Shown here: positions 14,383 through 48,177 of the stretch, in pieces
How the letters are laid out: every line of letters starts with the position of its first letter
Position numbering within the stretch: position 1 is the stretch's first letter
NCBI GenBank assembly: GCA_027858315.1
Contig: JAQICV010000077.1
Coordinates: 6,186 to 70,185 of the forward strand
Direction of reading: 5' to 3'
Length of the DNA stretch: 64,000 nucleotides
From: Candidatus Woesearchaeota archaeon
GTDB taxonomy: Archaea; Nanobdellota; Nanobdellia; Woesearchaeales; UBA583
Position numbers and translations under genes: made by a program
The notes under the pieces: model-generated
Database searches by the model: none
Seen by the model: the letters and a program-made list of their open reading frames with translations, nothing else
Told to the model about the DNA's origin: nothing

Positions 14383-14806
14383 TTTTTGTTAAATTCTCTA
14401 CAATCTTTCTCATACTAGAAACTATTCTTTCCTTCTCTGTTTCATCAATACTTGAGAGCATAATTTTTGCAATTTTTAGTTTTTGTTTTTTGTGATCTTT
14501 ATATGCTTCAATACCATGATCAGATAATGATACAAATACTTTTCTTCTATCTATACTCTCATCTCTTTCTCTTTTCAATAAATCTTTTTCAATTAATTTA
14601 TCTATTAGTGGAGTAATTGTTCCAGGAGTTAAATCAAACTCCTCTGCGATTTCTCCCATTGTCTTTTTTGATTTTTCAATAAAGTCAATTACTTGTAAGT
14701 CTCTAAGCGGCAATTCACAAAGAGTTTTAGAATTAGCAAGTTTTCTTTTAACTTGGGTTCCAATTGCCTCAATTAGCATAGCAAGTTCTTGTTCTTTTGA
14801 TACCAT
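14375..14806 (-). CDS. MarR-family transcriptional regulator
   Basis: 143 aa ORF with a winged helix-turn-helix and MarR-like spacing. Confidence 0.6.
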   Translation of the reverse strand: MVSKEQELAMLIEAIGTQVKRKLANSKTLCELPLRDLQVIDFIEKSKKTMGEIAEEFDLTPGTITPLIDKLIEKDLLKRERDESIDRRKVFVSLSDHGIEAYKDHKKQKLKIAKIMLSSIDETEKERIVSSMRKIVENLTKND

Positions 14807-18135: not shown

Positions 18136-20097
18136 CTAATTAACAATTCTCTCCAAAATTTCTCTACTCTTCTTAGTTTTATTTTTCCAGAATGATTCAT
18201 CTTGTAATACTCTTTTTAGAATCAACTCAGGAGTTGATTTTCCTAATTGATTAAATTGAGGTTGATGATTTGTCATTAAGTTTCCTTTCTCATCTAAACC
18301 TGTTGCAGAGATTCCATCTATTCTTATTCCTTTAACTCTTTGTTCTTCAATGAATTCTTTAATTTCTCTTCCTAAGTGAGATACTGCAATACAATAATTA
18401 TTTTGCAGAGATAATTCTGTTAAGAATTCTATTAGAATTTTAGCTGCAGCACCTGGCTCAGTTATTGCTTCGAATTCATCAATTAGAATTAATTTAGAAT
18501 TTTCATGGTCTAGTATTTCAATTAGATTTCTTATAGTTTGTTCAAATGCTCCTGATCCTTGAGTTCCTGTAAATTTCTTTAAGTAAATTATTTCATCAAA
18601 GATTTTTACTGTAGAAGATACTGAAGTTGGAGATGGAAGACCCATATTAGTTAGGATATGAATTTGTAAGAACATTTCTAGAATAGTTGTTTTTCCACCT
18701 GAATTTGCACCTGTTAATACTGAGATTTTTTCATTTTCTAATTTCTCATTATTTATTGAATTAGTTCCTAGTCCGTATGAGATTGGCATTGGATTATCGA
18801 TGTATATATTTCTACTTTGAATTAATTCAAGTTTGTCTCCTAAGTTAGGATATTGAAGGTTGTATTTTTTTGCAAACTTTGAGATTCCATTAAAGAAGTC
18901 TAAATAAAAAGCATAGTCCCATAGTTTTTTGATTTGTTTATAATTAATTGAACCTAGTTGTTTGTATGTGTCCAATTCTAATTGAGAAGAGACTGAATCG
19001 ATTTGATTTAATAAATTTGCTTTTGCTTCTTCATCTAATTCAAGAGGATATGTTGAATTAGAAAATAAGAAGTCAACATTTATTTTTGCCTTTTTGAAAT
19101 CTTCTAGGATTTCTTTTTCTCTTTGAGAAATTATTTCTCTAGTGTCTTCTTTGAATTTATCCTGGAGTGCTTGCATATTTCCAGAATTTAATAATTCAAG
19201 CAGCTCATCTCCTCCTAATGAGAGTTGTTTTTTTGAAATGATTTCTTTTAGTTCTTTGTTTATGTTCTGAACCTCTTCTTCAAGTCTTAGAGCTTTATTT
19301 GTCAATTCTTTTAGTGATTCAGAAGAATCTACTTCAAGAAGCTCTTTTAGTTTTATTTGGTCTATATCTATGTCTAATTCATTATTTGTTAATTGATGAG
19401 CACAGGATTGTATTGACTTATTATATTTTGAAGATAAATCTAAAAGTTTTAATAAATTTAAAATTTGTTTCGAATTCTTTTTTATTATATTTCCGATAAT
19501 TACTTTTTGAAAATCTTTGAAAGAATAAATTTCAAAGTCAACATATAAATCCTCTTCAGTTACTAAAATAAAACTTGCACTTTGGTTTTGAGTTATTTCT
19601 TCTAATTCATTTTTTGTAACATAGAGTGAGCTAATTTTATATGAGTCATATAATAGATCTTGAATTTGTTTGTCTAGAGTATAAATTGTTTTATTAAAAG
19701 ATACCTTTGTATTAATTAGTTCTATTTGATTGATTATTGTTTTGATTTGTTTTTGAGATTCTTCATCTATATCAATTTTAGAAATACTTGAGAAAATTTC
19801 TTTTCTTTTTTTTAATTCTTTAACTTCTTTAGTTGGATTAAAAAATAGATTTGCATAATGATTTGTCTTTTGATTGAAAAATTGAGATTTTATCATATCA
19901 AATATCTTAGTTAAATGTTTTTTTGCATGTGATTGAGTGTATATCTCTTGAGTCTCTTTATTGAATAATTTTAGAAGCTGACTTGAAGTTAAATCATGAA
20001 AGTTATATAATTCATAGTTAGTCATTATCGAATTTATTTTACTTTCAGTATTAAATTTTTTTAGAAGTTCTTGTTTTAGATTATCTTGTATATTCAT
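18136..20097 (-). CDS. MutS2-like ABC ATPase (MutS domain V protein)
   Basis: 653 aa ORF with the Walker A motif TGANSGGKTT and a MutS-type signature LIDEFEAITEP. The N-terminal coiled coil has no mismatch-binding domain. Confidence 0.6.
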   Translation of the reverse strand: MNIQDNLKQELLKKFNTESKINSIMTNYELYNFHDLTSSQLLKLFNKETQEIYTQSHAKKHLTKIFDMIKSQFFNQKTNHYANLFFNPTKEVKELKKRKEIFSSISKIDIDEESQKQIKTIINQIELINTKVSFNKTIYTLDKQIQDLLYDSYKISSLYVTKNELEEITQNQSASFILVTEEDLYVDFEIYSFKDFQKVIIGNIIKKNSKQILNLLKLLDLSSKYNKSIQSCAHQLTNNELDIDIDQIKLKELLEVDSSESLKELTNKALRLEEEVQNINKELKEIISKKQLSLGGDELLELLNSGNMQALQDKFKEDTREIISQREKEILEDFKKAKINVDFLFSNSTYPLELDEEAKANLLNQIDSVSSQLELDTYKQLGSINYKQIKKLWDYAFYLDFFNGISKFAKKYNLQYPNLGDKLELIQSRNIYIDNPMPISYGLGTNSINNEKLENEKISVLTGANSGGKTTILEMFLQIHILTNMGLPSPTSVSSTVKIFDEIIYLKKFTGTQGSGAFEQTIRNLIEILDHENSKLILIDEFEAITEPGAAAKILIEFLTELSLQNNYCIAVSHLGREIKEFIEEQRVKGIRIDGISATGLDEKGNLMTNHQPQFNQLGKSTPELILKRVLQDESFWKNKTKKSREILERIVN

Positions 20098-20244
20098 TTT
20101 TATTTATTAAAATGGTCTTGAAAATTTATTTTACTAAATTTTCATTGTTCATAATAAAAAATAGATTAAGCTGTTTTTAAATATTTGTAAGAAGTTGAAA
20201 TTATTTGAAATATAATACTTAATGAAAATCTATGAATGTATATA

Positions 20245-21190: not shown

Positions 21191-22402
21191 AAGCCCTCCG
21201 ACCGGGAGTAGTTTAATGTTAGAAATACAAGATATCAACAATAAAGAACTAAATACGTTGATATTAATAAATTTTAAAACTTAAATAAAAGTTCACCTCC
21301 TTTAATTAGGTGACTACAAAAATGAAAAATGAAAAAAATGTAGTCTCCTATTTCAAAGTTTTCTTGTACTGCTTTATTAAAAACTGAATTGTTGGTTTTA
21401 AATTGTTATTTTGAGAGTATTCTCTTAAAGAGAAGTAATACTCTTGTCTATCTTCTAAAAATATGTTAATTGGAGGATAATTATTTTTTAATAATATGTA
21501 ATTTAGTAATAATCTACCAACTCTGCCATTTCCATCTTGAAATGGATGAATATGTTCAAATTGATTATGGACTAGGGCTGCTAAGATCAGAGGTTTAAAG
21601 TTATTCTTATTCTCATTATACCAATGTATAAATTCGTCCAATTCTTCTTTTAATTGTGAGACAGGTGCTCCTTGATGAATGATATCACCTTGATTATTTT
21701 TTATTACAACTTCAACATCCCTTAACTTCCCTGCAAATCCTTTTGAACCTTTAAAACAAATTTCATGTAATTTTAATATTAAATCTAAAGAAACATCATC
21801 CTTGCAAGTGTTAATGAAATCTACGGCCAATCCAACATTAATAGTTTCTAGTTCATCTTTAGTTTTAGGTAAAGTTTTCTCTTCAAGTAAATCCTTAACT
21901 TCATCTTCAAGAACAGATGAACCTTCAATTGCATTAGTATTATATACGAAATCTTCTTTAAATTTCTCAAATTCTGAATTTTGAAGATGAATTATTTTTA
22001 ACTTAGAATCATATTTATTTAATTGATTAATTTGAGAAGAAGATAAAAAAAAATTAAAGACTTCTGTTTTTAACTCTTCAATTTGTTCAAGAATTATTTG
22101 CTGTGCCCTAGATTTATTTTTTTCTAAATCTTTTGCAGATAAATTTTGTCCTAGATACCTAGAAATTTTTTTTACTTTATCATTATCTCTATAAGAATGA
22201 GATAAATAGTATTTTATATTTTTTCCAGATTTTCTTTTTTCTACAAACATAGTAATAATTAGGTGACTACAATTTATAAATATATCTTCTTATGTAGTCA
22301 CCTTTCTTAAAATTTAGGTTCACCTCCTACCAAAAGTCAAGAATCTAGAAAATACATAATACGGTTCGCCTCCCGCGTTTTTTAAAAGCCCTCCGACCGG
22401 GA
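21191..22402. mobile_element. ~1.2 kb tRNA-Glu-associated cassette carrying a Fic gene, flanked by a 17-bp direct repeat of the tRNA 3' end
   Basis: 'aagccctccgaccggga' occurs at 21191-21207 and again at 22386-22402, inside the tRNA. Internal repeats: 'aggtgactaca' at 21308 and 22261, its inverse at 22293, and 'gttcRcctcc' at 21291, 22318 and 22364. Confidence 0.6.
21348..22250 (-). CDS. Fic-family protein (AMP-transferase), class II with inhibitory TxxxEG helix
   Basis: 300 aa ORF with the Fic motif HPFQDGNGRVGR and an upstream TNAIEG inhibitory motif. Confidence 0.85.
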   Translation of the reverse strand: MFVEKRKSGKNIKYYLSHSYRDNDKVKKISRYLGQNLSAKDLEKNKSRAQQIILEQIEELKTEVFNFFLSSSQINQLNKYDSKLKIIHLQNSEFEKFKEDFVYNTNAIEGSSVLEDEVKDLLEEKTLPKTKDELETINVGLAVDFINTCKDDVSLDLILKLHEICFKGSKGFAGKLRDVEVVIKNNQGDIIHQGAPVSQLKEELDEFIHWYNENKNNFKPLILAALVHNQFEHIHPFQDGNGRVGRLLLNYILLKNNYPPINIFLEDRQEYYFSLREYSQNNNLKPTIQFLIKQYKKTLK

Positions 22403-31319: not shown

Positions 31320-31459
31320 ATTTTACTTTGTCTTAGAGAATTTATAAAGATTTAGTAATTATGGCCTGGCCTTAACTTTATAAAGTAAAATTCATTATAT
31401 ATTATATATGAGGTCACAAATTGTAAAAATTTGCTTGACACTTTTTTAATGAATAAAAA

Positions 31460-31882: not shown

Positions 31883-32182
31883 ATGAGCGAAGTACAAAAT
31901 CTAATTACGAAGGAAAAACTTGAGAAGTATTTTGATATTACAGGTAGAGCTCTTAAAAAATTAAAACTAGCCTGCCCTGATAAGACTCATTTAGATAAAA
32001 TTGCTAAAGATTATCTTAATATGGCTCAAACCTATTTTAACGATGCAAAACACTTTGAAGAACAAAGTGATTGGATTAATGCATTTGCTGCTCTGAATTA
32101 TGCTCACGGATGGTTAGATGCAGGTGCTAGACTTGGAGTATTTGATGTCGAACACGATTCAGTTCTTTTTACTGTTGATTGA
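31883..32182 (+). CDS. conserved hypothetical protein
   Basis: 99 aa helical ORF. Its last 35 bp are duplicated at 32248-32282. Confidence 0.35.
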   Translation: MSEVQNLITKEKLEKYFDITGRALKKLKLACPDKTHLDKIAKDYLNMAQTYFNDAKHFEEQSDWINAFAALNYAHGWLDAGARLGVFDVEHDSVLFTVD

Positions 32183-32278
32183 GTGAGATATCAAATTTAG
32201 ATGCTTTGTGTTAGCAAAGTTCCGAACGAATTTTATGAGTGACTGAATTGAACATGATTCAGTATTATTTACTGTTGA

Positions 32279-33700
32279 TTAATCTTTTAATTTATCAGTA
32301 TTAAAGTGTAATTTTTGAACTAATTCACGATTAATAAAAATCCCTTCTAAGATTTCCCTTCTTTTTTCATAATTCACATCAATTAAAGTTTTTCCATTAA
32401 GATATAGTATATCAAATGCCTTTACTACTACATTGATATGTGATACTACTGAGATTTCTTTTGTCAAAATTCTTCTTGATAGAATTTGAAATTCTAAAAA
32501 CTCTTCTTTGTCAAAGTCATACCCAACACATTCAGTATCTAATACGAAACTTAGGTCTGAAAAATTATCTTTTATGAATTCAACAACTTCAGGAAATTGT
32601 TTAGTTATATTATCTAAGTTTCTTGAAAATAATTCTATTTCCCCTTTTTTGTTGTGTATCTGAACTCTTAATCCATCATATTTATAGTCTAAAAATGCAG
32701 GAGTCCCAGTAAGTTCTAAACTTTCTTTAATTGTATTCTTTCTTGTTCCAAGCATACTTTTAATTGGATTTCCTAAAATAATCTCAAAATTTAAAATATT
32801 TAAAATGTCGTCATCAAGTTCTCTTAGTAATTTTCTAAATGAGTTTAATAGATTGTATTTTTTTTCAAAATATTGTGTGAATGCGTTATACACTTCTCTT
32901 GGATTTGAAGATTTTAGTATTTGTTTTTCCTTATTTCTCCTTAGAGCAAATTCTATCGGTTTTATTTCATATTCAATGTCATAATCAAGTAAGCTTGTTT
33001 CTTTTTTTGGCGTTTCAAGTTCAACGATTTGGTATTTTCTTTGCGCTAATTCATCTTGTTCTTTTAAGTCTAGTTTAGTTTTACATTTTAAACAATTTGA
33101 TAAATTTAAATTCACATATAGGCATTTAGGACATATCAAATGAATCCCAAGAATATTTGGAAAATATGCATTAACTGCAGCTTCTCTTAGAACTCCTTCT
33201 GATACCCCAATCCTTAAATCATCAATTAATAGTCTTGAAAGATATTTGTATTCAACATCAGAATTAGCGTATAAGTATAAATTACTCAAAATCTCTTTTT
33301 TCTTTTTATTGCTGTTTGTTCCACTAATTGATGCTATTTCATCTAAAGATTTGTTAATGAATTCAATTGTTAATTTTTTACTTAGTAAACTTTGTTGATA
33401 TTTTTCTTTTAAAACTTCTACACTAACTGAACCTAAATCTCCAAGTTTGTTGAACTTTTTTTCAACGCCTCTCTCACTAGTTTTGGAAATAGAACTAATA
33501 ACTGAAAATATTGTCTTTAATGAAATTCCTAGATTTTTCTTATTAATTTCTCTTTGATAATTTTTTGCTAAGATGTCAAATACGATTTTTGCATCTTTTT
33601 TATTTTCAAGCAAAAAATCTCTTAGAATTAAGACTTTCTCTAATCTTTTAGATCTTTTATCTAAATTTTCAAAAAGCTTTGCAATCTCTAAAAACTCCAT
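32279..33700 (-). CDS. ATP-dependent DNA ligase, apparently lacking the C-terminal OB domain
   Basis: 473 aa ORF with a DNA-binding N-terminus, motif I KYDGLR, VLDTE and FDILY. It ends soon after motif IV. A CPKC..CLKC zinc ribbon is inserted. Confidence 0.7.
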   Translation of the reverse strand: MEFLEIAKLFENLDKRSKRLEKVLILRDFLLENKKDAKIVFDILAKNYQREINKKNLGISLKTIFSVISSISKTSERGVEKKFNKLGDLGSVSVEVLKEKYQQSLLSKKLTIEFINKSLDEIASISGTNSNKKKKEILSNLYLYANSDVEYKYLSRLLIDDLRIGVSEGVLREAAVNAYFPNILGIHLICPKCLYVNLNLSNCLKCKTKLDLKEQDELAQRKYQIVELETPKKETSLLDYDIEYEIKPIEFALRRNKEKQILKSSNPREVYNAFTQYFEKKYNLLNSFRKLLRELDDDILNILNFEIILGNPIKSMLGTRKNTIKESLELTGTPAFLDYKYDGLRVQIHNKKGEIELFSRNLDNITKQFPEVVEFIKDNFSDLSFVLDTECVGYDFDKEEFLEFQILSRRILTKEISVVSHINVVVKAFDILYLNGKTLIDVNYEKRREILEGIFINRELVQKLHFNTDKLKD

Positions 33701-33809: not shown

Positions 33810-34355
33810 ATGTCTTTTGTTATCCTTTTTATTCTAAAAGAAACATTTATAAAACTTAAAATTAAATATTTTCTTATGGTATTTGACAAGATCAGAGAAG
33901 CGTTCTCTAAAACAGATGAAAAGTATGAAATATTATATTACAAATACTCTCAAATCAAGATGGAGAACATCAAATTAAAGGAGAAGCATACAAAGGAGAT
34001 GCAACATCATAAAGAAAAAGTACATGAGATTATGGCAAAACATTTAATTAATCTTTATGAAGATGTTGAGACTGCAAAATCAGATAGTTTCAAAGTAAAG
34101 GCATCAGATAAAGAGACTCAAAGACTTTTAATTAGTTTAAATAAAGTAGAAAAAGATATGAAATCTGTAATGACTAATTTTTCAATTGAAACTTATGATG
34201 CTGAAGATAGGATGTTTGATCCAGAATTGCACGAAATAGCTTCTTATCAAGATGCTAAAGGAATGAAGAAAGGAATAATTATTAATACAGTAAAAAAAGG
34301 TTTCAAATATAGAAATAATATTATTAAAAAACCGAAAGTTCTTGTTACAAAATAA
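33810..34355 (+). CDS. GrpE-like coiled-coil protein (tentative)
   Basis: 181 aa ORF with an N-terminal coiled coil. The C-terminus (KGFKYRNNIIKKPKVLV) resembles the GrpE beta domain. Confidence 0.3.
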   Translation: MSFVILFILKETFIKLKIKYFLMVFDKIREAFSKTDEKYEILYYKYSQIKMENIKLKEKHTKEMQHHKEKVHEIMAKHLINLYEDVETAKSDSFKVKASDKETQRLLISLNKVEKDMKSVMTNFSIETYDAEDRMFDPELHEIASYQDAKGMKKGIIINTVKKGFKYRNNIIKKPKVLVTK

Positions 34356-41027: not shown

Positions 41028-41069
41028 ATAAATATTAGTTTAAAATATGAACCTTATAAATATTTCTAA

Positions 41070-41237
41070 AATTTAAAATAATAGAGGAGGGAGGGATACG
41101 AGAAATTTTTCTTCGAAATAATTTCTGGACAATTTGAACAATAATAAAAATTCGGGAAATTTTTAAACAAATTGAATAATTCAATTAGGTTCAAATAGTT
41201 TGAACCTTCAATCACAATTTATAGAAAATAGGTGAGG
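41070..41237. repeat. miniature element 3' of tRNA-Cys: att-like duplication plus palindromic hairpin
   Basis: 'gagggagggat' at 41087-41097 repeats the tRNA 3' end at 41227-41237. The hairpin is agaaatttttcttcgaaataatttct at 41101-41126. The body is homologous to 48027-48147. Confidence 0.55.
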
Positions 41238-41294
41238 GAGGGATTTGAACCCTCGATCACAGGGTTGCAGCCTATTGCCTTAACCACTTGGCCA
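41223..41294 (-). tRNA. tRNA-Cys (anticodon GCA)
   Basis: Cloverleaf with anticodon loop CTGCAAC and discriminator U73, which is typical of tRNA-Cys. Confidence 0.85.
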
Positions 41295-41393
41295 CCCCAC
41301 CACAAGTAAATATTAATTATATTTGTTTTATAAAGGTTTCTTACAAAGAAACTTCCGAAGAAATCTCTGATTTGTGACTGAAATTTTCCTATA

Positions 41394-41795
41394 TTAAAAA
41401 TTAGATAATTTGCCTGTAATTGAGTCTATTTTATCCTCATTTTCTGGACCAATTGCAAGACAAGTTGGAGTTCCAGGAGCAATTTCTGTTCTTCCTGCAT
41501 CAGTTATTAGAGCAGTTGTTAGTCCAAAATCTTTTGCTTCTTGAAGGTATTTGTATAATTCTTTTTCAGATTCAATCTTTAGAGTAATTTTTTTCATACC
41601 CGAATTTCTCCACTTTGAAACCATTCTATCGTCTGAACGAAGTGTTGCTTCAACTGCTGCATGAGCTGCTTGAGCTGCAATTTTACCTTTAGACATTCCT
41701 AAGTCTTTTCGAATTAGAATTACTTGTTTTAATTCAGACATAGAATTGGTGGTTTTTAATAGTTTAAAAAGTTTGGTCAAAAATTTAAAAAACAT
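41394..41795 (-). CDS. pth2: peptidyl-tRNA hydrolase, archaeal Pth2 type
   Basis: 133 aa ORF with VILIRKDLGMSKGKIAAQAAHAAV. Confidence 0.8.
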   Translation of the reverse strand: MFFKFLTKLFKLLKTTNSMSELKQVILIRKDLGMSKGKIAAQAAHAAVEATLRSDDRMVSKWRNSGMKKITLKIESEKELYKYLQEAKDFGLTTALITDAGRTEIAPGTPTCLAIGPENEDKIDSITGKLSNF

Positions 41796-41907
41796 TTTTT
41801 CGAAGCAATTTAATTTTTAAATAGTTCATTCACTAAGTTTGGAACAATTTAATTCTGGAAAAATTAAATAGTTTTATAAAAGTAAATTCATATATAATTT
41901 TATGGTA

Positions 41908-41941
41908 CAGTCACAATTAAAAATTGTTCGGGACCATTTTA
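41908..41941 (+). promoter_or_regulatory. conserved upstream motif (cagtcacaa..ttgttcggGAC..atttta) plus TATA-like box upstream of SRP54
   Basis: Shares about 80% identity and the same spacing to the ATG with 47366-47401 upstream of dut. Confidence 0.4.
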
Positions 41942-41957
41942 AATATTAAAATTAAAA

Positions 41958-43343
41958 ATGGTACTTGACAATTTAGGTGGGTCTTTGAAAGATACACTAT
42001 CTAAGATTAGGAATTCTTTAACAGTTGATAGAAATTTAGTTGAAGAAATTCTAAAAGAGATTCAAAAAGCTCTTTTGAGCTCTGATGTTAATGTTAGGTT
42101 AGTTCTTGAAGTTACAAAAAGAATTCGTGAAAGAGCAATTAATGAGAGAAATGAGAATCTTACGAAAAAAGAACAACTTATTACAATTATTTATGAAGAA
42201 TTGTCTGCTTTTTTGGGAGATGGAAAAGAATTTGAATTGCGTGAAAAACAAAATAGAATTTTACTTGTTGGCTTGTATGGTCAAGGAAAGACTACTACTT
42301 CAGGAAAATTAGGAAATTATTTTAAAAATAGAACAAAAAAAGTTGCACTTATTTCAACAGATACATGGAGACCTGCAGCATATGACCAATTAAAACAACT
42401 TGGAGATAAAATTGAGATTCAAGTTTTTGGAGATAAAACTGCTAAGAAACCGGAAGAAATTTATAAAAAATTCAAAAAAGAATTAGATAAATTTGAGATA
42501 GTAATCATTGATAGTGCTGGAAGAGATAGTTTGAATAAAGAACTTGTAGATGAAATTACTGACTTGAATAAAATAGTTGACCCAACAGATACATTTTTAG
42601 TTATGGGTGCAGATGTTGGACAGACTGCACAAAGACAAGCTGAAGCGTTTAAAGATAATTTGAATGTGACAGGAGTTATCATTACTAAGATGGATGGAAC
42701 TGGTAAAGGTGGAGGCGCCCTTAGTGCTTGTTCTATTGTTGAAGCTCCAGTAAGATTTATTGGTGTTGGTGAAAAAACTGAAGATTTTGAAAGATTTAAT
42801 TCTGAGAAATTTGTATCCCAACTTTTAGGCATGGGTGATATTGATACTCTTCTTGAAAAAGCAAAACTTGCAATTGATGAAGATAAAGCTAGAGGCATGG
42901 CCGATCGTATGATGAAAGGAAATTTTGACCTTGATGATTTATACGAGCAAATGGGTGCTATGAAGAAAATGGGTTCTATGTCTAAAATTATGGGAATGAT
43001 GCCCGGAATGGGAGGTTTGAAGATTGATAAATCACAGATGGAAAATCAAGAGTCTAAGATGAAAAAATGGAAATTTATTATGGATTCAATGACTAAATAT
43101 GAAAAAAGAAATCCTGAAGTAATTGAACTTTCAAGAATCAAAAGAATTGCTCAAGGTTCAGGAACTCAAGTTTCAGATTTAAGAGAACTCCTAAAACATT
43201 TTAAACAGACTAAAAAAATGATGACTATGTTAAAAGATCCTGGTTCAATGCCCGATATGGATAATATGAATCCTCAAGAAATTATGAAAATGATGAAAAA
43301 ATCAGGCATGAAAGATTTTAAAAAATTAGGTAAAAAAAAATAG
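41958..43343 (+). CDS. srp54: signal recognition particle protein SRP54
   Basis: 461 aa ORF with an NG domain (GLYGQGKTTT, DTWRPAA, KMDGTGKGG) and a Met-rich M domain. Confidence 0.9.
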   Translation: MVLDNLGGSLKDTLSKIRNSLTVDRNLVEEILKEIQKALLSSDVNVRLVLEVTKRIRERAINERNENLTKKEQLITIIYEELSAFLGDGKEFELREKQNRILLVGLYGQGKTTTSGKLGNYFKNRTKKVALISTDTWRPAAYDQLKQLGDKIEIQVFGDKTAKKPEEIYKKFKKELDKFEIVIIDSAGRDSLNKELVDEITDLNKIVDPTDTFLVMGADVGQTAQRQAEAFKDNLNVTGVIITKMDGTGKGGGALSACSIVEAPVRFIGVGEKTEDFERFNSEKFVSQLLGMGDIDTLLEKAKLAIDEDKARGMADRMMKGNFDLDDLYEQMGAMKKMGSMSKIMGMMPGMGGLKIDKSQMENQESKMKKWKFIMDSMTKYEKRNPEVIELSRIKRIAQGSGTQVSDLRELLKHFKQTKKMMTMLKDPGSMPDMDNMNPQEIMKMMKKSGMKDFKKLGKKK

Positions 43344-43403: not shown

Positions 43404-43688
43404 ATGAATGATGTAGAAGATAATCCGAATAATCCTACGATTCTTTCTGGAGAAAAATTGAATGTAAGGCACCACTTCATTATTAAATATAAAACTGAGG
43501 AAGATAGAATCAAATTTATCGAAAAAGTTTTAAAACTTATCAAAGATCATGAGATTAGAGATTATTTTATTGAAGAAAAAAAAGCTTTTATGAAAAATAG
43601 AATATTATATAATCATAAAACTCTGATTAATGGTAATGAATTTAGTTTTTCCCAAATAGATCAAGAATTTTGTAAATATTTGAACTAA
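43404..43688 (+). CDS. hypothetical protein
   Basis: 94 aa ORF. Confidence 0.25.
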   Translation: MNDVEDNPNNPTILSGEKLNVRHHFIIKYKTEEDRIKFIEKVLKLIKDHEIRDYFIEEKKAFMKNRILYNHKTLINGNEFSFSQIDQEFCKYLN

Positions 43689-44041
43689 AATAAATTTTTA
43701 ATAATTTTCTTCCACAATATTATTTCCTTTGAAAAATTAATCATGAATAATGTTGCAATTCCCCATAGAACAAGTAACCATATTGGAATTCCAAAATAAT
43801 TAGGCTTTGAATATGTCCATGCTCCATATGAAATTGCAATTATTTCTGAGATTGCTCCCATTAAACCACAAATAAAAAATATTAGAATCATATCTTTATC
43901 TTTCATTAAAAACAATATTAGAAATGCATAGAATATTAATAGAACTAATACTAGATTTGGGTTATTCCATAAAAAAGCAACTGTTAAAAGAGTCATAACT
44001 GATAGAGTATTTGTCAGAAAAGATTTTAGATATTCATTCAT
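43685..44041 (-). CDS. small membrane protein
   Basis: 118 aa ORF with four transmembrane helices. Confidence 0.3.
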   Translation of the reverse strand: MNEYLKSFLTNTLSVMTLLTVAFLWNNPNLVLVLLIFYAFLILFLMKDKDMILIFFICGLMGAISEIIAISYGAWTYSKPNYFGIPIWLLVLWGIATLFMINFSKEIILWKKIIKNLF

Positions 44042-44063: not shown

Positions 44064-44684
44064 TTATAAAAGTTCTTTAAATTCTTGAATATTTTCTACC
44101 AAATAATCTGGATTAAATTTTTCAAGTAATTTTTTAGAGTTATAACCCCAACTAACACTTATACATTTTACTCCTGCAGCTTTGGATGCTTCAATATCTC
44201 TAATCTCATCTCCAACATAATATACTTCTTCTTTATTTAGATTATTTTCATCAATTATTTTTTGAATGTGTTTTGCTTTTCCAAATAAAGAGGATTTGTA
44301 GTATTGTTTGTCAAAGAAATCTAATTTCTCTTTTTTGAATATTTTTTCAACAAATTCTTTGTTGTTAGAAGTTAAAATGTATAGTTTATGATTTTTACTT
44401 TTTAGATGTTCGAATAAAGTTTTTATTCTTTCAAAAGGTTTTACTTCGGAGTCCCTTTTATTAAAATCTCGTTTTATTTTCCAAACAATATATAATATCT
44501 GTAATTTATTAAGTTTAAATTCTTTGATTATATCATGCAAGGATTTATTTTCTATCAAATTGTATAGTCCTTTTTTACTCACTTCAATTCCAGATTTATT
44601 TGCATTTAAATATAGACAATCAATTAATAAATCTAAACTGTTAAGTATTGTTCCATCTACATCAAATATTAGAGTTTTACTCAT
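44064..44684 (-). CDS. HAD-superfamily hydrolase
   Basis: 206 aa ORF with HAD motif I IFDVDGTI and C-terminal motifs. Confidence 0.6.
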   Translation of the reverse strand: MSKTLIFDVDGTILNSLDLLIDCLYLNANKSGIEVSKKGLYNLIENKSLHDIIKEFKLNKLQILYIVWKIKRDFNKRDSEVKPFERIKTLFEHLKSKNHKLYILTSNNKEFVEKIFKKEKLDFFDKQYYKSSLFGKAKHIQKIIDENNLNKEEVYYVGDEIRDIEASKAAGVKCISVSWGYNSKKLLEKFNPDYLVENIQEFKELL

Positions 44685-45779
44685 TTTTGAACTCCAATAA
44701 AAAAATGTCTTTGATATTTATTACAGGTTTTGAATGTCTTAATATGTCATCTTGACCAATTCTAGGACAAGCAGTATTTACCCAACATTCTACGAATGGG
44801 AAATTTTCCATTTCACTATCCAAGAAATTATCTGAAACAAAATAATAAAATTCTTTATCTTTGTATTGGTCTTTTAATTTTAAAGCTGATTCTTTGTATT
44901 CTTGTCCCCATTTTGATGAAACAAAAACTCCGATAATGTTTGAAGTATAAAATTTTAAAAGATTTCCTTTTTTCTTTTTTAAGTATTTTTCAATATGAGT
45001 TTTATCTATTACTTCAATTAATTCTTGAACTATATTTAAAATAATTACTGGCTTGATTTTATCCTGATTTTCTTGAGCTAGTAGAATTGCATTTGGATGA
45101 AAATATCCATCACCAATATATACAAATCCATCAACTTTTGAAATGTCTAAATTTAAATTGTCTACATAGGAATCACACCCTAGAATTTGTCCTTTAAATT
45201 CTGCTCTATGAGGTTTAGTAATTATTATATTGTATCCTTCTTTTTCTAAAAGAGATTTTACTATTTCTAATTTTGGAATAAATTGAATTGCGCAGTATAT
45301 AGCAATTGTTTTTTTTTCACCAAGTGTTTCTTTTAATTTTTTAGTAAAATCTTGTGGTATTATGAAGTCTATTCCAAAATTTGCATTTAATAATTTTATT
45401 TTCATTTTTGGACCACCTCCAAAAATGAAGAAATTTGTTCCAAATTTCTTAACAATCCAATACTAAGTATTTTGCCTTGTTTCATTCTTTACCACATCTC
45501 CTTTTTCTTAATGTATACAGCATGACCCCATTGAACACATAAGTCAAAACCCAATTTATCTAAGTGGTGAGGGATGTCACATGCACCAAAACATGTACCA
45601 AAATATGAAAAATAATCTGCTTTTGTTTTTTCTTTTAGTTCATCAATTATCTCTTTTGAGTAATATTTTAGTCCATCCGGAAACTGAAGAAGCACTAATT
45701 TGTGATTATTAGAATTTATATCATCTATTAATTTGTCAATTTCTAAATCATAATATGTTTTGTACTTTTTCTCACTCAT
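44677..45779 (-). pseudogene. diphthamide biosynthesis Dph2 (2-(3-amino-3-carboxypropyl)histidine synthase), split in two frames
   Basis: The N-terminal 96 aa (LLQFPDGL, GTCFGACD, WGHA) lie at 45489..45779. The C-terminal 242 aa (GQILGCDS, GDGYFHP) lie at 44677..45405. A stop plus a frame change fall in the 83-nt gap. Confidence 0.55.
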
Positions 45780-46552: not shown

Positions 46553-46855
46553 TCATTTATACTCATCAATTAAATCCTCATCATAAGAAGAATCATATTT
46601 TGAGATTTGAGATGATTGATTATTTTTATTTTTTTTATGATAGACATAATAACTAATAATTAAAATCCATATCAATGATTGCATCAAATATGAAATCATA
46701 CCACTTTTTAAATAGAAATTAACACCAAATAAAATTATTATTAAAATTAACATAAATTTAAAAGGTAAAGTTTCCTTACTCTTTTCAAAACCAAGAATAG
46801 AATTTCTAATTGGTTTTCCATCAATTCCATATTTTGGTTCCTCAAAATTATCCAT
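46553..46855 (-). CDS. small membrane protein, tandem paralog A
   Basis: 100 aa ORF with 'KYGIDGKPIRNS' followed by two transmembrane helices. Similar to 46925..47308. Confidence 0.3.
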   Translation of the reverse strand: MDNFEEPKYGIDGKPIRNSILGFEKSKETLPFKFMLILIIILFGVNFYLKSGMISYLMQSLIWILIISYYVYHKKNKNNQSSQISKYDSSYDEDLIDEYK

Positions 46856-46924: not shown

Positions 46925-47308
46925 TTATTTATTAAATTCTTCAATTAATTTATCTGCTTTTTTTTGATCAAAATCAGATTCATCATCATATTGATCTAAG
47001 ATTTCATCTATTTCATCATCTGATTCAATATCTAAGGGATTACTTCCTTTATTATCATTAAAGGTATCATCTATTTGTCTAATTTTCATGTAGCCTAAGA
47101 ATATTATTAATACAAGATAAAATAACCCTTGGCCCAAAATCATTGCCAATTTAGGACTTATCATAAAATAAATAACTGCTAAAGTAATTAGAGTACCAAA
47201 AATTATCTTAATAGTTAAACCATGATTTGAATCTTTATTAATTTTAAACATTGAATCTTTAATTGGTCTACCATCAGGAGCATATTTTGATTCATGATTA
47301 TTCTTCAT
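46925..47308 (-). CDS. small membrane protein, tandem paralog B
   Basis: 127 aa ORF with 'KYAPDGRPIKDS' followed by two transmembrane helices and an acidic tail. Confidence 0.3.
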   Translation of the reverse strand: MKNNHESKYAPDGRPIKDSMFKINKDSNHGLTIKIIFGTLITLAVIYFMISPKLAMILGQGLFYLVLIIFLGYMKIRQIDDTFNDNKGSNPLDIESDDEIDEILDQYDDESDFDQKKADKLIEEFNK

Positions 47309-47365
47309 AATTATTTTTCAAAAGATAAGATTTATAATACTTTTTAATCTTAATTTAGTTATGTG

Positions 47366-47401
47366 CAGTCACAAATCGAAGATTTGTTCGGTACATTTTT
47401 A
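47366..47401 (+). promoter_or_regulatory. conserved upstream motif (cagtcacaa..tttgttcggTAC..attttta) upstream of dut
   Basis: Direct comparison with 41908-41941. Confidence 0.4.
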
Positions 47402-47419
47402 ACAAAAAAATTGTAAAAA

Positions 47420-47935
47420 ATGGAAAAACCTTTTTTAAAGATAAAGCTATTAAGAGAGAATGCTACAATGCCTTCTAAGAGAGTTGAAGATGCATGTTTT
47501 GATTTGTATGGATGTTTTGATGAAGATCCAAAGTTCTCATATCCAGGAGATATTTATTTAGTTCCATTAGGTATTTCAACAGAATTCCCAAGAGATTGGG
47601 TTTTTTATATCGTTGAGAGGTCAGGTTCAGGGTCCAAAGGGATTTCTACTAGAGCAGGAGTAATAGACAGTGGATATAGGGGAGAGATTAAAACTCCACT
47701 GAATAATACAACAAATAAATTGATTATTTTTTCAGAATTCCCTGATGAAGAAATTAAAGAGAAATTTGCAGAGAAATTAAAGGGCTTTGAAGATAATTAT
47801 AGGATTTATCCTCAATCTAAAGGGATTGCGCAAGGTTTCTTACTATATTGTCCACATGTTGATGTTGAAGAAGTAAAAGAACTTGATATGAACTCCGAGA
47901 GAGGATCTGGAGGATGGGGAAGTACAGGTAAATAA
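47420..47935 (+). CDS. dut: dUTP diphosphatase (dUTPase)
   Basis: 171 aa ORF with RSGSGSKG, GVIDSGYRGE and a C-terminal RGSGGWGSTG. Confidence 0.8.
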   Translation: MEKPFLKIKLLRENATMPSKRVEDACFDLYGCFDEDPKFSYPGDIYLVPLGISTEFPRDWVFYIVERSGSGSKGISTRAGVIDSGYRGEIKTPLNNTTNKLIIFSEFPDEEIKEKFAEKLKGFEDNYRIYPQSKGIAQGFLLYCPHVDVEEVKELDMNSERGSGGWGSTGK

Positions 47936-47996: not shown

Positions 47997-48177
47997 TTAG
48001 AATTATGAAAATGTGGCCATACGGATACGAGAAATTTTTCTTTGAAATAATTTCTGGAACATTGTTAAAACAAAGTACGAGAAATTTTACTACACAACAA
48101 TTTTTACTTCATAAAAATAGTTTGAACTCTCTTCAAATCTTATTCAATTAGAATTACGAAAACGTGGCCACGCGGAT
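47997..48177. repeat. miniature element 3' of tRNA-Pro: ~30-bp att-like duplication plus palindromic hairpin
   Basis: 'ttagaattaYgaaaaYgtggccaYRcggat' occurs at 47997-48026 and 48148-48177. The hairpin is agaaatttttctttgaaataatttct at 48030-48055. Confidence 0.55.

Follow-up and report, generated by a model that had tools for sequence, protein, structure and literature searches.

A CAGTCAC–TTCGG motif at gene boundaries of Woesearchaeota, probably the terminal module of miniature non-coding insertion elements

The window, that is, the whole 64-kb stretch of Woesearchaeota DNA analysed here, has a G+C content of 27%, and its SRP54 and DNA ligase match proteins of a MAG labelled Candidatus Woesearchaeota archaeon without a difference. 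A Pfam scan of 73 window ORFs identified only housekeeping or unassigned genes. At about 19–24 window genes, a box of the TTTATAAA type lies 28–32 nt upstream of the ATG, mostly at exactly 29 nt (examples are the genes at 14806, 16674, 26556, 28923, 31319, 48852, 48940, and 57885). Transcription starts approximately 26 nt downstream of the centre of a TATA box. Because the box mostly lies 29 nt before the ATG, the first genes of transcription units look leaderless; internal genes of these units (e.g., 44677..45405) carry GGAGGT. Comparison contigs with syntenic neighbourhoods come from two congeneric organisms (SRP54 92% and 89% identical, ligase 92% and 88%), for which nucleotide identity to the window is about 80–87% (~83%). 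Contig L274 represents a more distant relative (ligase 70% identical); its positions 1–2284 hold a large ORF with intein-splicing and LAGLIDADG domains.

Upstream of the genes for SRP54 and dUTPase (dut), the earlier note had aligned two segments (41908–41941 and 47366–47401) at about 80% identity, each ending 17–19 nt before the ATG. Both figures hold: the identity is 28/36 (78%), and the block ends 17 nt (ATG 41958) and 19 nt (ATG 47420) upstream of the start codons. The bipartite pattern CAGTCAC-N(10–16)-TTCGG has four exact matches in the window, compared with an expectation of 0.00 from 100 dinucleotide shuffles, and the spacer in these four cores is N12–14. The cores are M1 (41908–41931, + strand; CAGTCAC-N12-TTCGG, with an inner hairpin ACAATT/AATTGT), M2 (47366–47391, +), M3 (32222–32245, –), which supplies an exact core for the inverted copy previously placed at 32215–32245, and M4 (41355–41380, –), which had not been noticed before. 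The window contains five CAGTCAC heptamers, four of which have TTCGG 12–14 nt downstream; thus, the motif is no AT-rich artefact, and the low-complexity explanation that had been named as what would refute it is contradicted by four core matches against 0.00 in shuffles. In total, the window holds four intact and three decayed copies, and approximately 13 copies (about eight intact, five decayed) are known from six organisms. Profile searches (nhmmer) with the core and with the M1-type unit returned the seed copies only, other matches being weak, and an added 10 kb of the source contig, which brought the source genome sequence examined to ~74 kb, held no further copy. Elsewhere in the window, palindromic pairs at 21300–21330 and 22255–22310 (AGGTGACTACA ... 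TGTAGTCACCT) flank TATA regions near a Fic-family gene (21348..22250); in appearance these are inverted repeats of the operator type, and they have no relation to the CAGTCAC..TTCGG element.

Each of M1–M4 is precisely absent from at least one congeneric genome that carries the same genes. The M1 insertion at the SRP54 start (41902..41957, +) comprises 56 nt, made up of the left repeat ATGGTAC and the element. In L081 and L082 exactly these 56 nt are missing and the empty site reads TTTATAAAAGTAAATTCATATATAATTCT-ATGGTACTTGAC; in the window the occupied site reads ...ATGGTA[CAGTCAC...AAAA]ATGGTACTTGAC. The right direct repeat ATGGTAC (41958..41964, +; 7/7 identical) is the true SRP54 start, so that the 7-nt direct repeat takes in the start codon. 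The native SRP54 TATA box TTTATAAAA (41873..41881, +) lies 29 nt upstream of the retained first ATG at 41902 and is also present in L081 and L082. A second hairpin at 41933..41962 (+; ACCATTTT...AAAATGGT), which an inverted-repeat scan reports with 15-nt arms at 87%, pairs the real SRP54 ATG (41958). The M2 insertion at the dUTPase start (47360..47419, +) is 60 nt long and is absent from L082, in which the empty site is TTTAAT-ATGGAAAAACC; here the direct repeat is ATG, and the parts on the + strand are a first ATG at 47361, the core at 47366–47391, a hairpin at 47394–47422, and the real ATG at 47420.

Two decayed copies of the M1 type extend the earlier note's list. One occupies the eIF2-beta leader (31408–31459, +; ATGAG-GTCAC..CTTGAC..TTTTTTAA..AAAAA-ATGG) and is also found in L270 and L271; in the outgroup L274 the site is empty and the gene leaderless. 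The other lies in the leader of gene 18136..20097 (20098–20152, –; ..TTCAAGACCATTTTAA..AAAA-ATG; nhmmer E = 0.008). A unit of ~50 nt is homologous over its full length at four start codons that have only ATG in common, and the host genes (encoding SRP54, dUTPase, eIF2-beta, and an AAA-like protein) are unrelated in function. Four of the seven window copies are located exactly at leaderless start positions, which we judge, as an unquantified assessment, to exceed what survivorship would give; survivorship in a compact genome could partly contribute. A further candidate in the "GrpE leader" was rejected, since GrpE really starts at 33877 with a leaderless ATG that has a TATA of its own at –29. 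The longest GrpE ORF starts at 33810, and the TATA 29 nt before 33877 (ATGGTATTTGAC) and the L270 alignment favour the start at 33877.

The motif upstream of SRP54 and dut had been read as an extended archaeal promoter common to both genes, in which the TATA-like "cattttaa" is preceded by a transcription-factor site at about –55 to –30. An A/T-rich box does lie within the motif, and the distance from motif to ATG is fixed at 17–19 nt. However, the SRP54 genes of L081 and L082, dut in L082, and eIF2-beta in L274 lack the block and start 29 nt after the same TATA, and in all four start-codon copies the native TATA is kept upstream of the insert, 29–31 nt before the retained first ATG. The motif's own "cattttaa" begins 16–24 nt before the ATG at a distance that differs from copy to copy, rather than the 28–32 nt seen at ~19 other genes; an archaeal core promoter (BRE/TATA) has a fixed-distance TATA conserved at orthologs, which the motif's A/T box is not. 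Moreover, two of the four intact window copies are located downstream of genes, and the conserved blocks decay in older copies. The promoter reading fails on account of the block-free orthologs, the true TATA upstream, an A/T box at a variable and too short distance, and the half of the intact copies situated 3' of genes; we consider it very improbable.

The two intact window copies outside gene starts, M3 and M4, adjoin gene ends. The M3 element (32183..32249, –; core 32222–32245; second hairpin CTTTG/CAAAG) is located between two DUF357 3' ends. The gene-proximal repeat (32150..32182, +) provides the working last 10 codons and stop of DUF357, and the distal repeat (32250..32282, +) is a displaced DUF357 3' end that overlaps the ligase stop codon. 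A repeat scan detects this pair as 31 nt at 87% with a spacing of 100, the full repeat being ~33 nt. L270 and L271 are empty at this DUF357/ligase junction, with ~94–100 nt missing. The M3 repeats show five differences, all synonymous, and are as distant from each other as from the L270 ortholog; because the differences are all synonymous, an imported gene end fits better than a fresh duplication. The M4 block (41332..41380, –; 49 nt) lies between the PTH2 stop and the tRNA-Cys TATA and includes the core (41355–41380) and a hairpin GTTTCTT/AAGAAAC (41336–41352). These 49 nt are missing from L081; in L082 the copy is decayed (TATTCAT..TTATG), with both stems kept. A decayed copy upstream of the SRP54 TATA (41827..41860, +; CATTCAC..TGGAAC) is the ortholog of an intact copy at L082 571–596, and in L081 the equivalent position shows CAGTCAC with a right half that has degenerated. 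More generally, the CAGTCAC and TTCGG blocks are lost from older copies, and the A/T inner stem is kept in decayed ones.

Every copy is an insertion relative to close relatives (presence/absence polymorphism), and in relatives the same kind of core occurs at different loci. These include L082 571–596; L081 1709, where an M3-like copy separates the tRNA-Cys gene from a 15-nt duplicate of the tRNA-Cys 3' end; L274 19224, at which CAGTCAC-N17-TTTGG-TACCTTTTTAAC lies between tRNA-Arg and a duplicate of the tRNA-Arg 3' end; and the split dph2 gene of L082, whose spacer holds a variant of the core. The core is absent from L001 (SRP54 77%) and from the other Woesearchaeota loci examined. The gene for Dph2 (diphthamide synthase) is also split in the window (44677–45779, –) into ORFs of 96 and 242 aa separated by an 83-nt spacer with a GGAGGT ribosome-binding site; L082 2995–4142 shows the same split and spacer with an extra 51-nt element-like insert. 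Two further genes are absent from the syntenic L081 and L082 contigs, one of 118 aa with a weak DUF2878 match (43685–44041, –) and one of 100 aa apparently related to its neighbour 46925..47308 (46553–46855, –). Judged by this synteny, both are recent gains or losses adjoining the element cluster.

Downstream of most tRNA genes examined in the clade, the 3' part of the gene occurs a second time, from the T-loop to the end and sometimes with the trailer (window 41069–41244 and 47997–48177; L001 9022–9129; L274 18920–19045 and 19196–19320; L272 ~675–800). A non-coding filler of 70–140 nt, often with a T-arm-like hairpin, separates gene and duplicate. The repeats start in the T-loop at tRNA-Cys of L081, L001, and L272, at tRNA-Arg and tRNA-Glu of L274, and at tRNA-Cys and tRNA-Pro of the window; those of L081, L274, L001, and L272 measure 14–26 nt. 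The two window fillers constitute family W: that at tRNA-Cys (41098..41215, +; ~118 nt) is flanked by repeats at 41069–41097 and 41216–41244, that at tRNA-Pro (48027..48147, +) by repeats at 47997–48026 and 48148–48177, and both open with a common 32-nt block (31/32 identical). Family W resembles the core family in architecture (terminal block, A/T hairpin, TGG-AC), and its kinship to that family is architectural only and not proven. Partial copies of the motif had been claimed for both 41140–41166 and 41796–41870. The latter contains the decayed copy at 41827–41860; the former lies inside the family W filler, whose sequence shows no significant resemblance to the core family (nhmmer E = 3.7 and 25). 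A second group, family T, shares GCTCAAC-hairpin-CTTGG-YACC between tRNA-Cys of L001 and tRNA-Glu of L274, and its layout matches that of the core family, of which it is probably a diverged branch.

Read in the orientation of the core, an insert consists of a distal repeat, a 0–8 nt spacer, CAGTCAC, 12–17 nt, TTCGG or TTTGG, K-A-C, a second hairpin, a variable segment, and the gene-proximal repeat, followed by the gene; the CAGTCAC end is thus 0–8 nt from one copy of the target direct repeat. The 12–17-nt core interior forms an A/T hairpin in the M1, M2, and M4 type, with compensatory changes in three of seven pairs. The segment GGKACC(A)TTTTTAA and the hairpin CC(A)TTTTT/AAAAA(T)GG are common to M1, M2, the 18136 copy, and L274, and therefore belong to the element. 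In M1 and M2 the gene's ATGG forms part of the 3' arm of this hairpin, and the ATG at the 18136 copy is paired likewise; in the eIF2-beta copy the second hairpin stops at the AUG.

All inserts lie between direct repeats of a gene boundary, consisting of the ATG of leaderless genes (3–7 nt), the tRNA T-loop to 3' end (about 14–35 nt), or the last 11 DUF357 codons (33 nt); over all copies the lengths are 3, 7, ~13, 15, 14–26, and 31–35 nt. Because the repeat always takes in the gene boundary, the gene survives the insertion. The gene with the duplicated boundary is always on the side of the element opposite CAGTCAC. At 5' insertions this gene points away from the element, at 3' insertions towards it. 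Inspected by eye, the left and right ends of the individual inserts are unrelated and show no terminal inverted repeats, and an inverted-repeat scan of the four intact and two leader copies (M3 and M4 clipped by 1–7 nt) gave internal hairpins and no pairing that joins the ends. Most copies contain an internal stretch complementary to the target beside the proximal repeat. Shuffle p values for this complementarity are 0.0005 (L081t), 0.0005 (L274-Arg), 0.0035 (L001), 0.026 (M3), and 0.03 (M4), with a combined p of 6e-8 for copies that were chosen by eye; M1 and M2 are individually non-significant.

We propose that the motif is the conserved terminal module of miniature (~35–100 bp), non-coding, non-autonomous insertion elements that have been moving in the genomes of a small group of related Woesearchaeota, a reading to which we assign a probability of roughly 0.65. 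The earlier note's suggestion of a promoter-bearing, MITE-like repeat forming one family with the mini elements is upheld in substance, since the copies are polymorphic and repeat-flanked and the core occurs in the L081 tRNA-Cys and L274 tRNA-Arg elements; the promoter-bearing part is not.

The same sites might instead be scars of site-specific integration, left when a virus or plasmid with a tyrosine integrase and an attP-borne gene end inserted and was later deleted to attL, filler, and attR; the motif would serve the integrase as an arm or core site, and there would be no mobility of the short blocks themselves. The tRNA duplications, which run from the T-loop to or past the 3' end like integrase att sites, are consistent with such an origin, and partial tRNA copies are known as attR remnants of archaeal elements of 9–23 kb (PMC9897764). 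So are the M3 repeats, with their solely synonymous differences and a mutual distance equal to that from the L270 ortholog, and the 7-nt repeat of M1, which has the size of a tyrosine-recombinase overlap region. Against this, a ~50-nt unit is homologous throughout at four start codons sharing only ATG; a single genome carries family W at two different tRNA genes, with a separate repeat at each; independent insertions would have had to be cut down to 35–120 bp again and again, which is improbable; neither an integrase gene nor a larger version was seen at any of the ~13 sites; and five specific patterns retrieved nothing real from the viral collection. The specific patterns covered subfamily 1, the M1/M2 type, family W, and family T; a less specific 14-letter motif pattern gave chance matches in viral contigs, among the matches listed. 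We regard integration scars as an unlikely explanation.

For inserted elements at gene starts, the host TATA would now fire at the retained first ATG, giving a leader of ~55 nt that would open with a uORF of 8–15 codons and end in an A/T hairpin; insertion would thereby turn leaderless genes into leadered genes with a structured leader. In M1, M2, and the 18136 copy, the real AUG is paired within this A/T hairpin; in M1, M2, and the eIF2-beta copy, the uORF ends 8–17 nt short of the real AUG. Such insert-made leaders may well affect translation. A conserved uORF peptide was considered and rejected: the peptides are alike, yet the frames differ through the core, and the likeness therefore reflects DNA homology and no conserved peptide.

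These features also bear on the possibility that the unit is a functional 5'-leader RNA module for control of translation or stability, with a CAGUCAC/UUCGG internal loop as a protein-binding site, that has spread to several genes. M1, M2, and the two decayed leader copies are sense-oriented between the TATA-defined start and the real AUG, with a second hairpin that pairs this AUG (M1, M2, 18136) or ends at it (eIF2-beta); the M1 fold has z = –3.67, and the inner stem is kept in old copies. However, M3, M4, L082 571, and the tRNA-linked copies lie outside 5' leaders; M3 and the tRNA-linked copies are antisense to the gene with the duplicated end; the conserved blocks are exactly the parts that decay in retained leaders; the four host genes have no functional relation; there is no Rfam match; and the folds of M2, M3, and M4 are no better than shuffles. 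Copy orientation and the decay of the conserved blocks defeat a pure RNA-element reading, which we consider improbable. Across the whole window, Rfam identified only tRNAs at the gathering threshold, with nothing credible at E ≤ 10 in 41040–42020, and inspection of both strands by eye revealed neither RUGAUGA/CUGA pairs nor CUGANGA..GAAA cores. C/D or H/ACA sRNAs, K-turns, hammerhead and other small ribozymes, BHB introns, CRISPR repeats, and ORB/dif sites were rejected as identities of the motif, since the requisite boxes, symmetry, or context are absent and Rfam is empty.

If the motif is the terminal module of mobile elements, a putative trans-acting recombinase encoded elsewhere in the genome would recognise CAGTCAC..TTCGG for binding or cleavage and join this module at gene boundaries. 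The direct repeat would have one of two origins, a staggered cut that is then repaired or a short crossover in which the element supplies the remainder of the gene end; circular units, if formed, would show junctions such as AAAATGGTA|CAGTCAC. Duplication at insertion is favoured by the presence of one element type at many unrelated targets, each with its own repeat, and of family W at two different tRNAs within one genome, whereas the T-loop breakpoints, the repeats reaching the gene end, and the synonymous differences at M3 favour recombination of the integrase type, in which the element brings the gene end with it. A folded single-stranded intermediate, or pairing with the target in the manner of a guide, is suggested by the hairpins and by the target-complementary stretch within most copies, and we infer that the folded intermediate is the more likely chemistry. 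Neither the 73 window ORFs scanned with Pfam nor the gene tables of seven relative loci (L081, L082, L270–L274) include a transposase, integrase, Cas1, or reverse transcriptase.

Wider scans concerned other collections. A metagenome scan for the motif gave 10 matches, of which six are chance matches in GC-rich contigs and four belong to an unrelated conserved sequence (32–37% GC); because the scan missed the window's own copy, the source contig is not in that collection. The latter four (L259, L265, L266, and L268; 32–37% G+C) share a near-identical GTCACCTAGTCAC(W)TACACATTCCTCACTTCGTTCGGAA(Y)TTCAGAACAC, a conserved sequence that matched the pattern by chance and is not the element studied here. 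A scan of a genome collection with SRP54 returned mostly bacterial Ffh; its Woesearchaeota were L001–L004 only, none with the core. A fused 1915-aa protein used as a query for further contigs of relatives had no match.

Among known mobile DNA, the elements are closest in outward form to MITEs (Neisseria Correia elements, Sulfolobus SM1–4, Rickettsia palindromic elements), which are likewise short, non-coding, hairpin-rich, multi-copy, polymorphic, and repeat-flanked, sit in transcribed gene borders, and alter leaders; the window elements are small (35–100 nt), non-coding, multi-copy, and polymorphic, with empty sites in relatives. Unlike MITEs, they have no terminal inverted repeats visible by eye and only one conserved end, their repeat varies from 3 to 35 nt with the target class rather than having a fixed length, they insert at gene boundaries (the start codon at the transcription start, the tRNA T-loop, and the ORF 3' end), and the 73 window ORFs scanned include no parent IS. 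We know of no classical transposase that yields a repeat range of 3–35 nt.

Integrative elements that target tRNA genes (SSV/pNOB8-type and other tyrosine integrases) also produce a duplication from the T-loop to the tRNA 3' end, in which the gene-side copy restores the gene end, as well as protein-gene 3'-end repeats with synonymous differences; sublocation classes of tRNA-targeting integration were reportedly described by Williams in 2002. In contrast to integrase att remnants, the fillers seen here, in the window and in relatives, are 35–140 bp with neither an ORF nor an integrase, and a single filler family can be found at unrelated targets, among them start codons with 3–7 nt repeats. Casposons, which are driven by Cas1, target the 3' ends of tRNA or aEF-2 genes and duplicate the target on integration; they are kilobases in size, encode Cas1 and PolB, and have terminal inverted repeats and a fixed ~14–15 bp duplication. 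The window elements share with them tRNA and protein-gene 3' ends as targets and a gene-preserving duplication, but lack Cas1, PolB, and visible terminal inverted repeats, and their duplication varies in length.

The IS200/IS605 family and the related PATE/REP sequences resemble the window elements in having no inverted termini and an internal sequence able to pair with the flanking target in a guide-like manner; function in IS200/IS605 rests on subterminal hairpins, as it would in the window elements. However, IS200/IS605 insertions lie 3' of a tetra- or pentanucleotide that is fixed, leave no duplication, and are bounded by two hairpin ends that differ from each other, whereas the window elements have clear direct repeats, differing flanks, and one conserved end, with no TnpA or TnpB in the window. 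Ty3, a eukaryotic LTR retrotransposon targeted to start sites via initiation factors, generates a fixed 5-bp duplication; like the window elements, it inserts within a few nucleotides of the transcription start at several unrelated genes. That the window elements might be tethered to TBP/TFB is, by this analogy, pure conjecture. The combination of variable repeat length (3–35 nt), a single conserved end, hairpins, and target complementarity matches no family compared. A more specific and more speculative version of our reading is that a new archaeal mobile element, a ~50-nt hairpin unit with one conserved end, homes to the transcription start/ATG, tRNA T-loops, and ORF 3' ends via a target-pairing folded single-stranded intermediate and creates uORF leaders in a leaderless lineage; taken as a whole, we hold this to be possible but unlikely.

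DPANN archaea have tiny, gene-dense genomes, and our literature searches located no description of such repeats or elements in this group. For annotation, the motif mimics a shared promoter, and duplicated ATGs or gene ends may mislead gene callers and tRNA finders. If target pairing is true, the putative recombinase is of mechanistic interest. If the proposed mobility is true, compact DPANN genomes still carry active selfish DNA. The copies seen are all confined to the few positions where an insertion would plausibly be tolerated in so compact a genome. The elements would provide a concrete route by which leaderless genes gain structured 5' leaders and uORFs, a gain that would bear on the evolution of archaeal modes of translation initiation.
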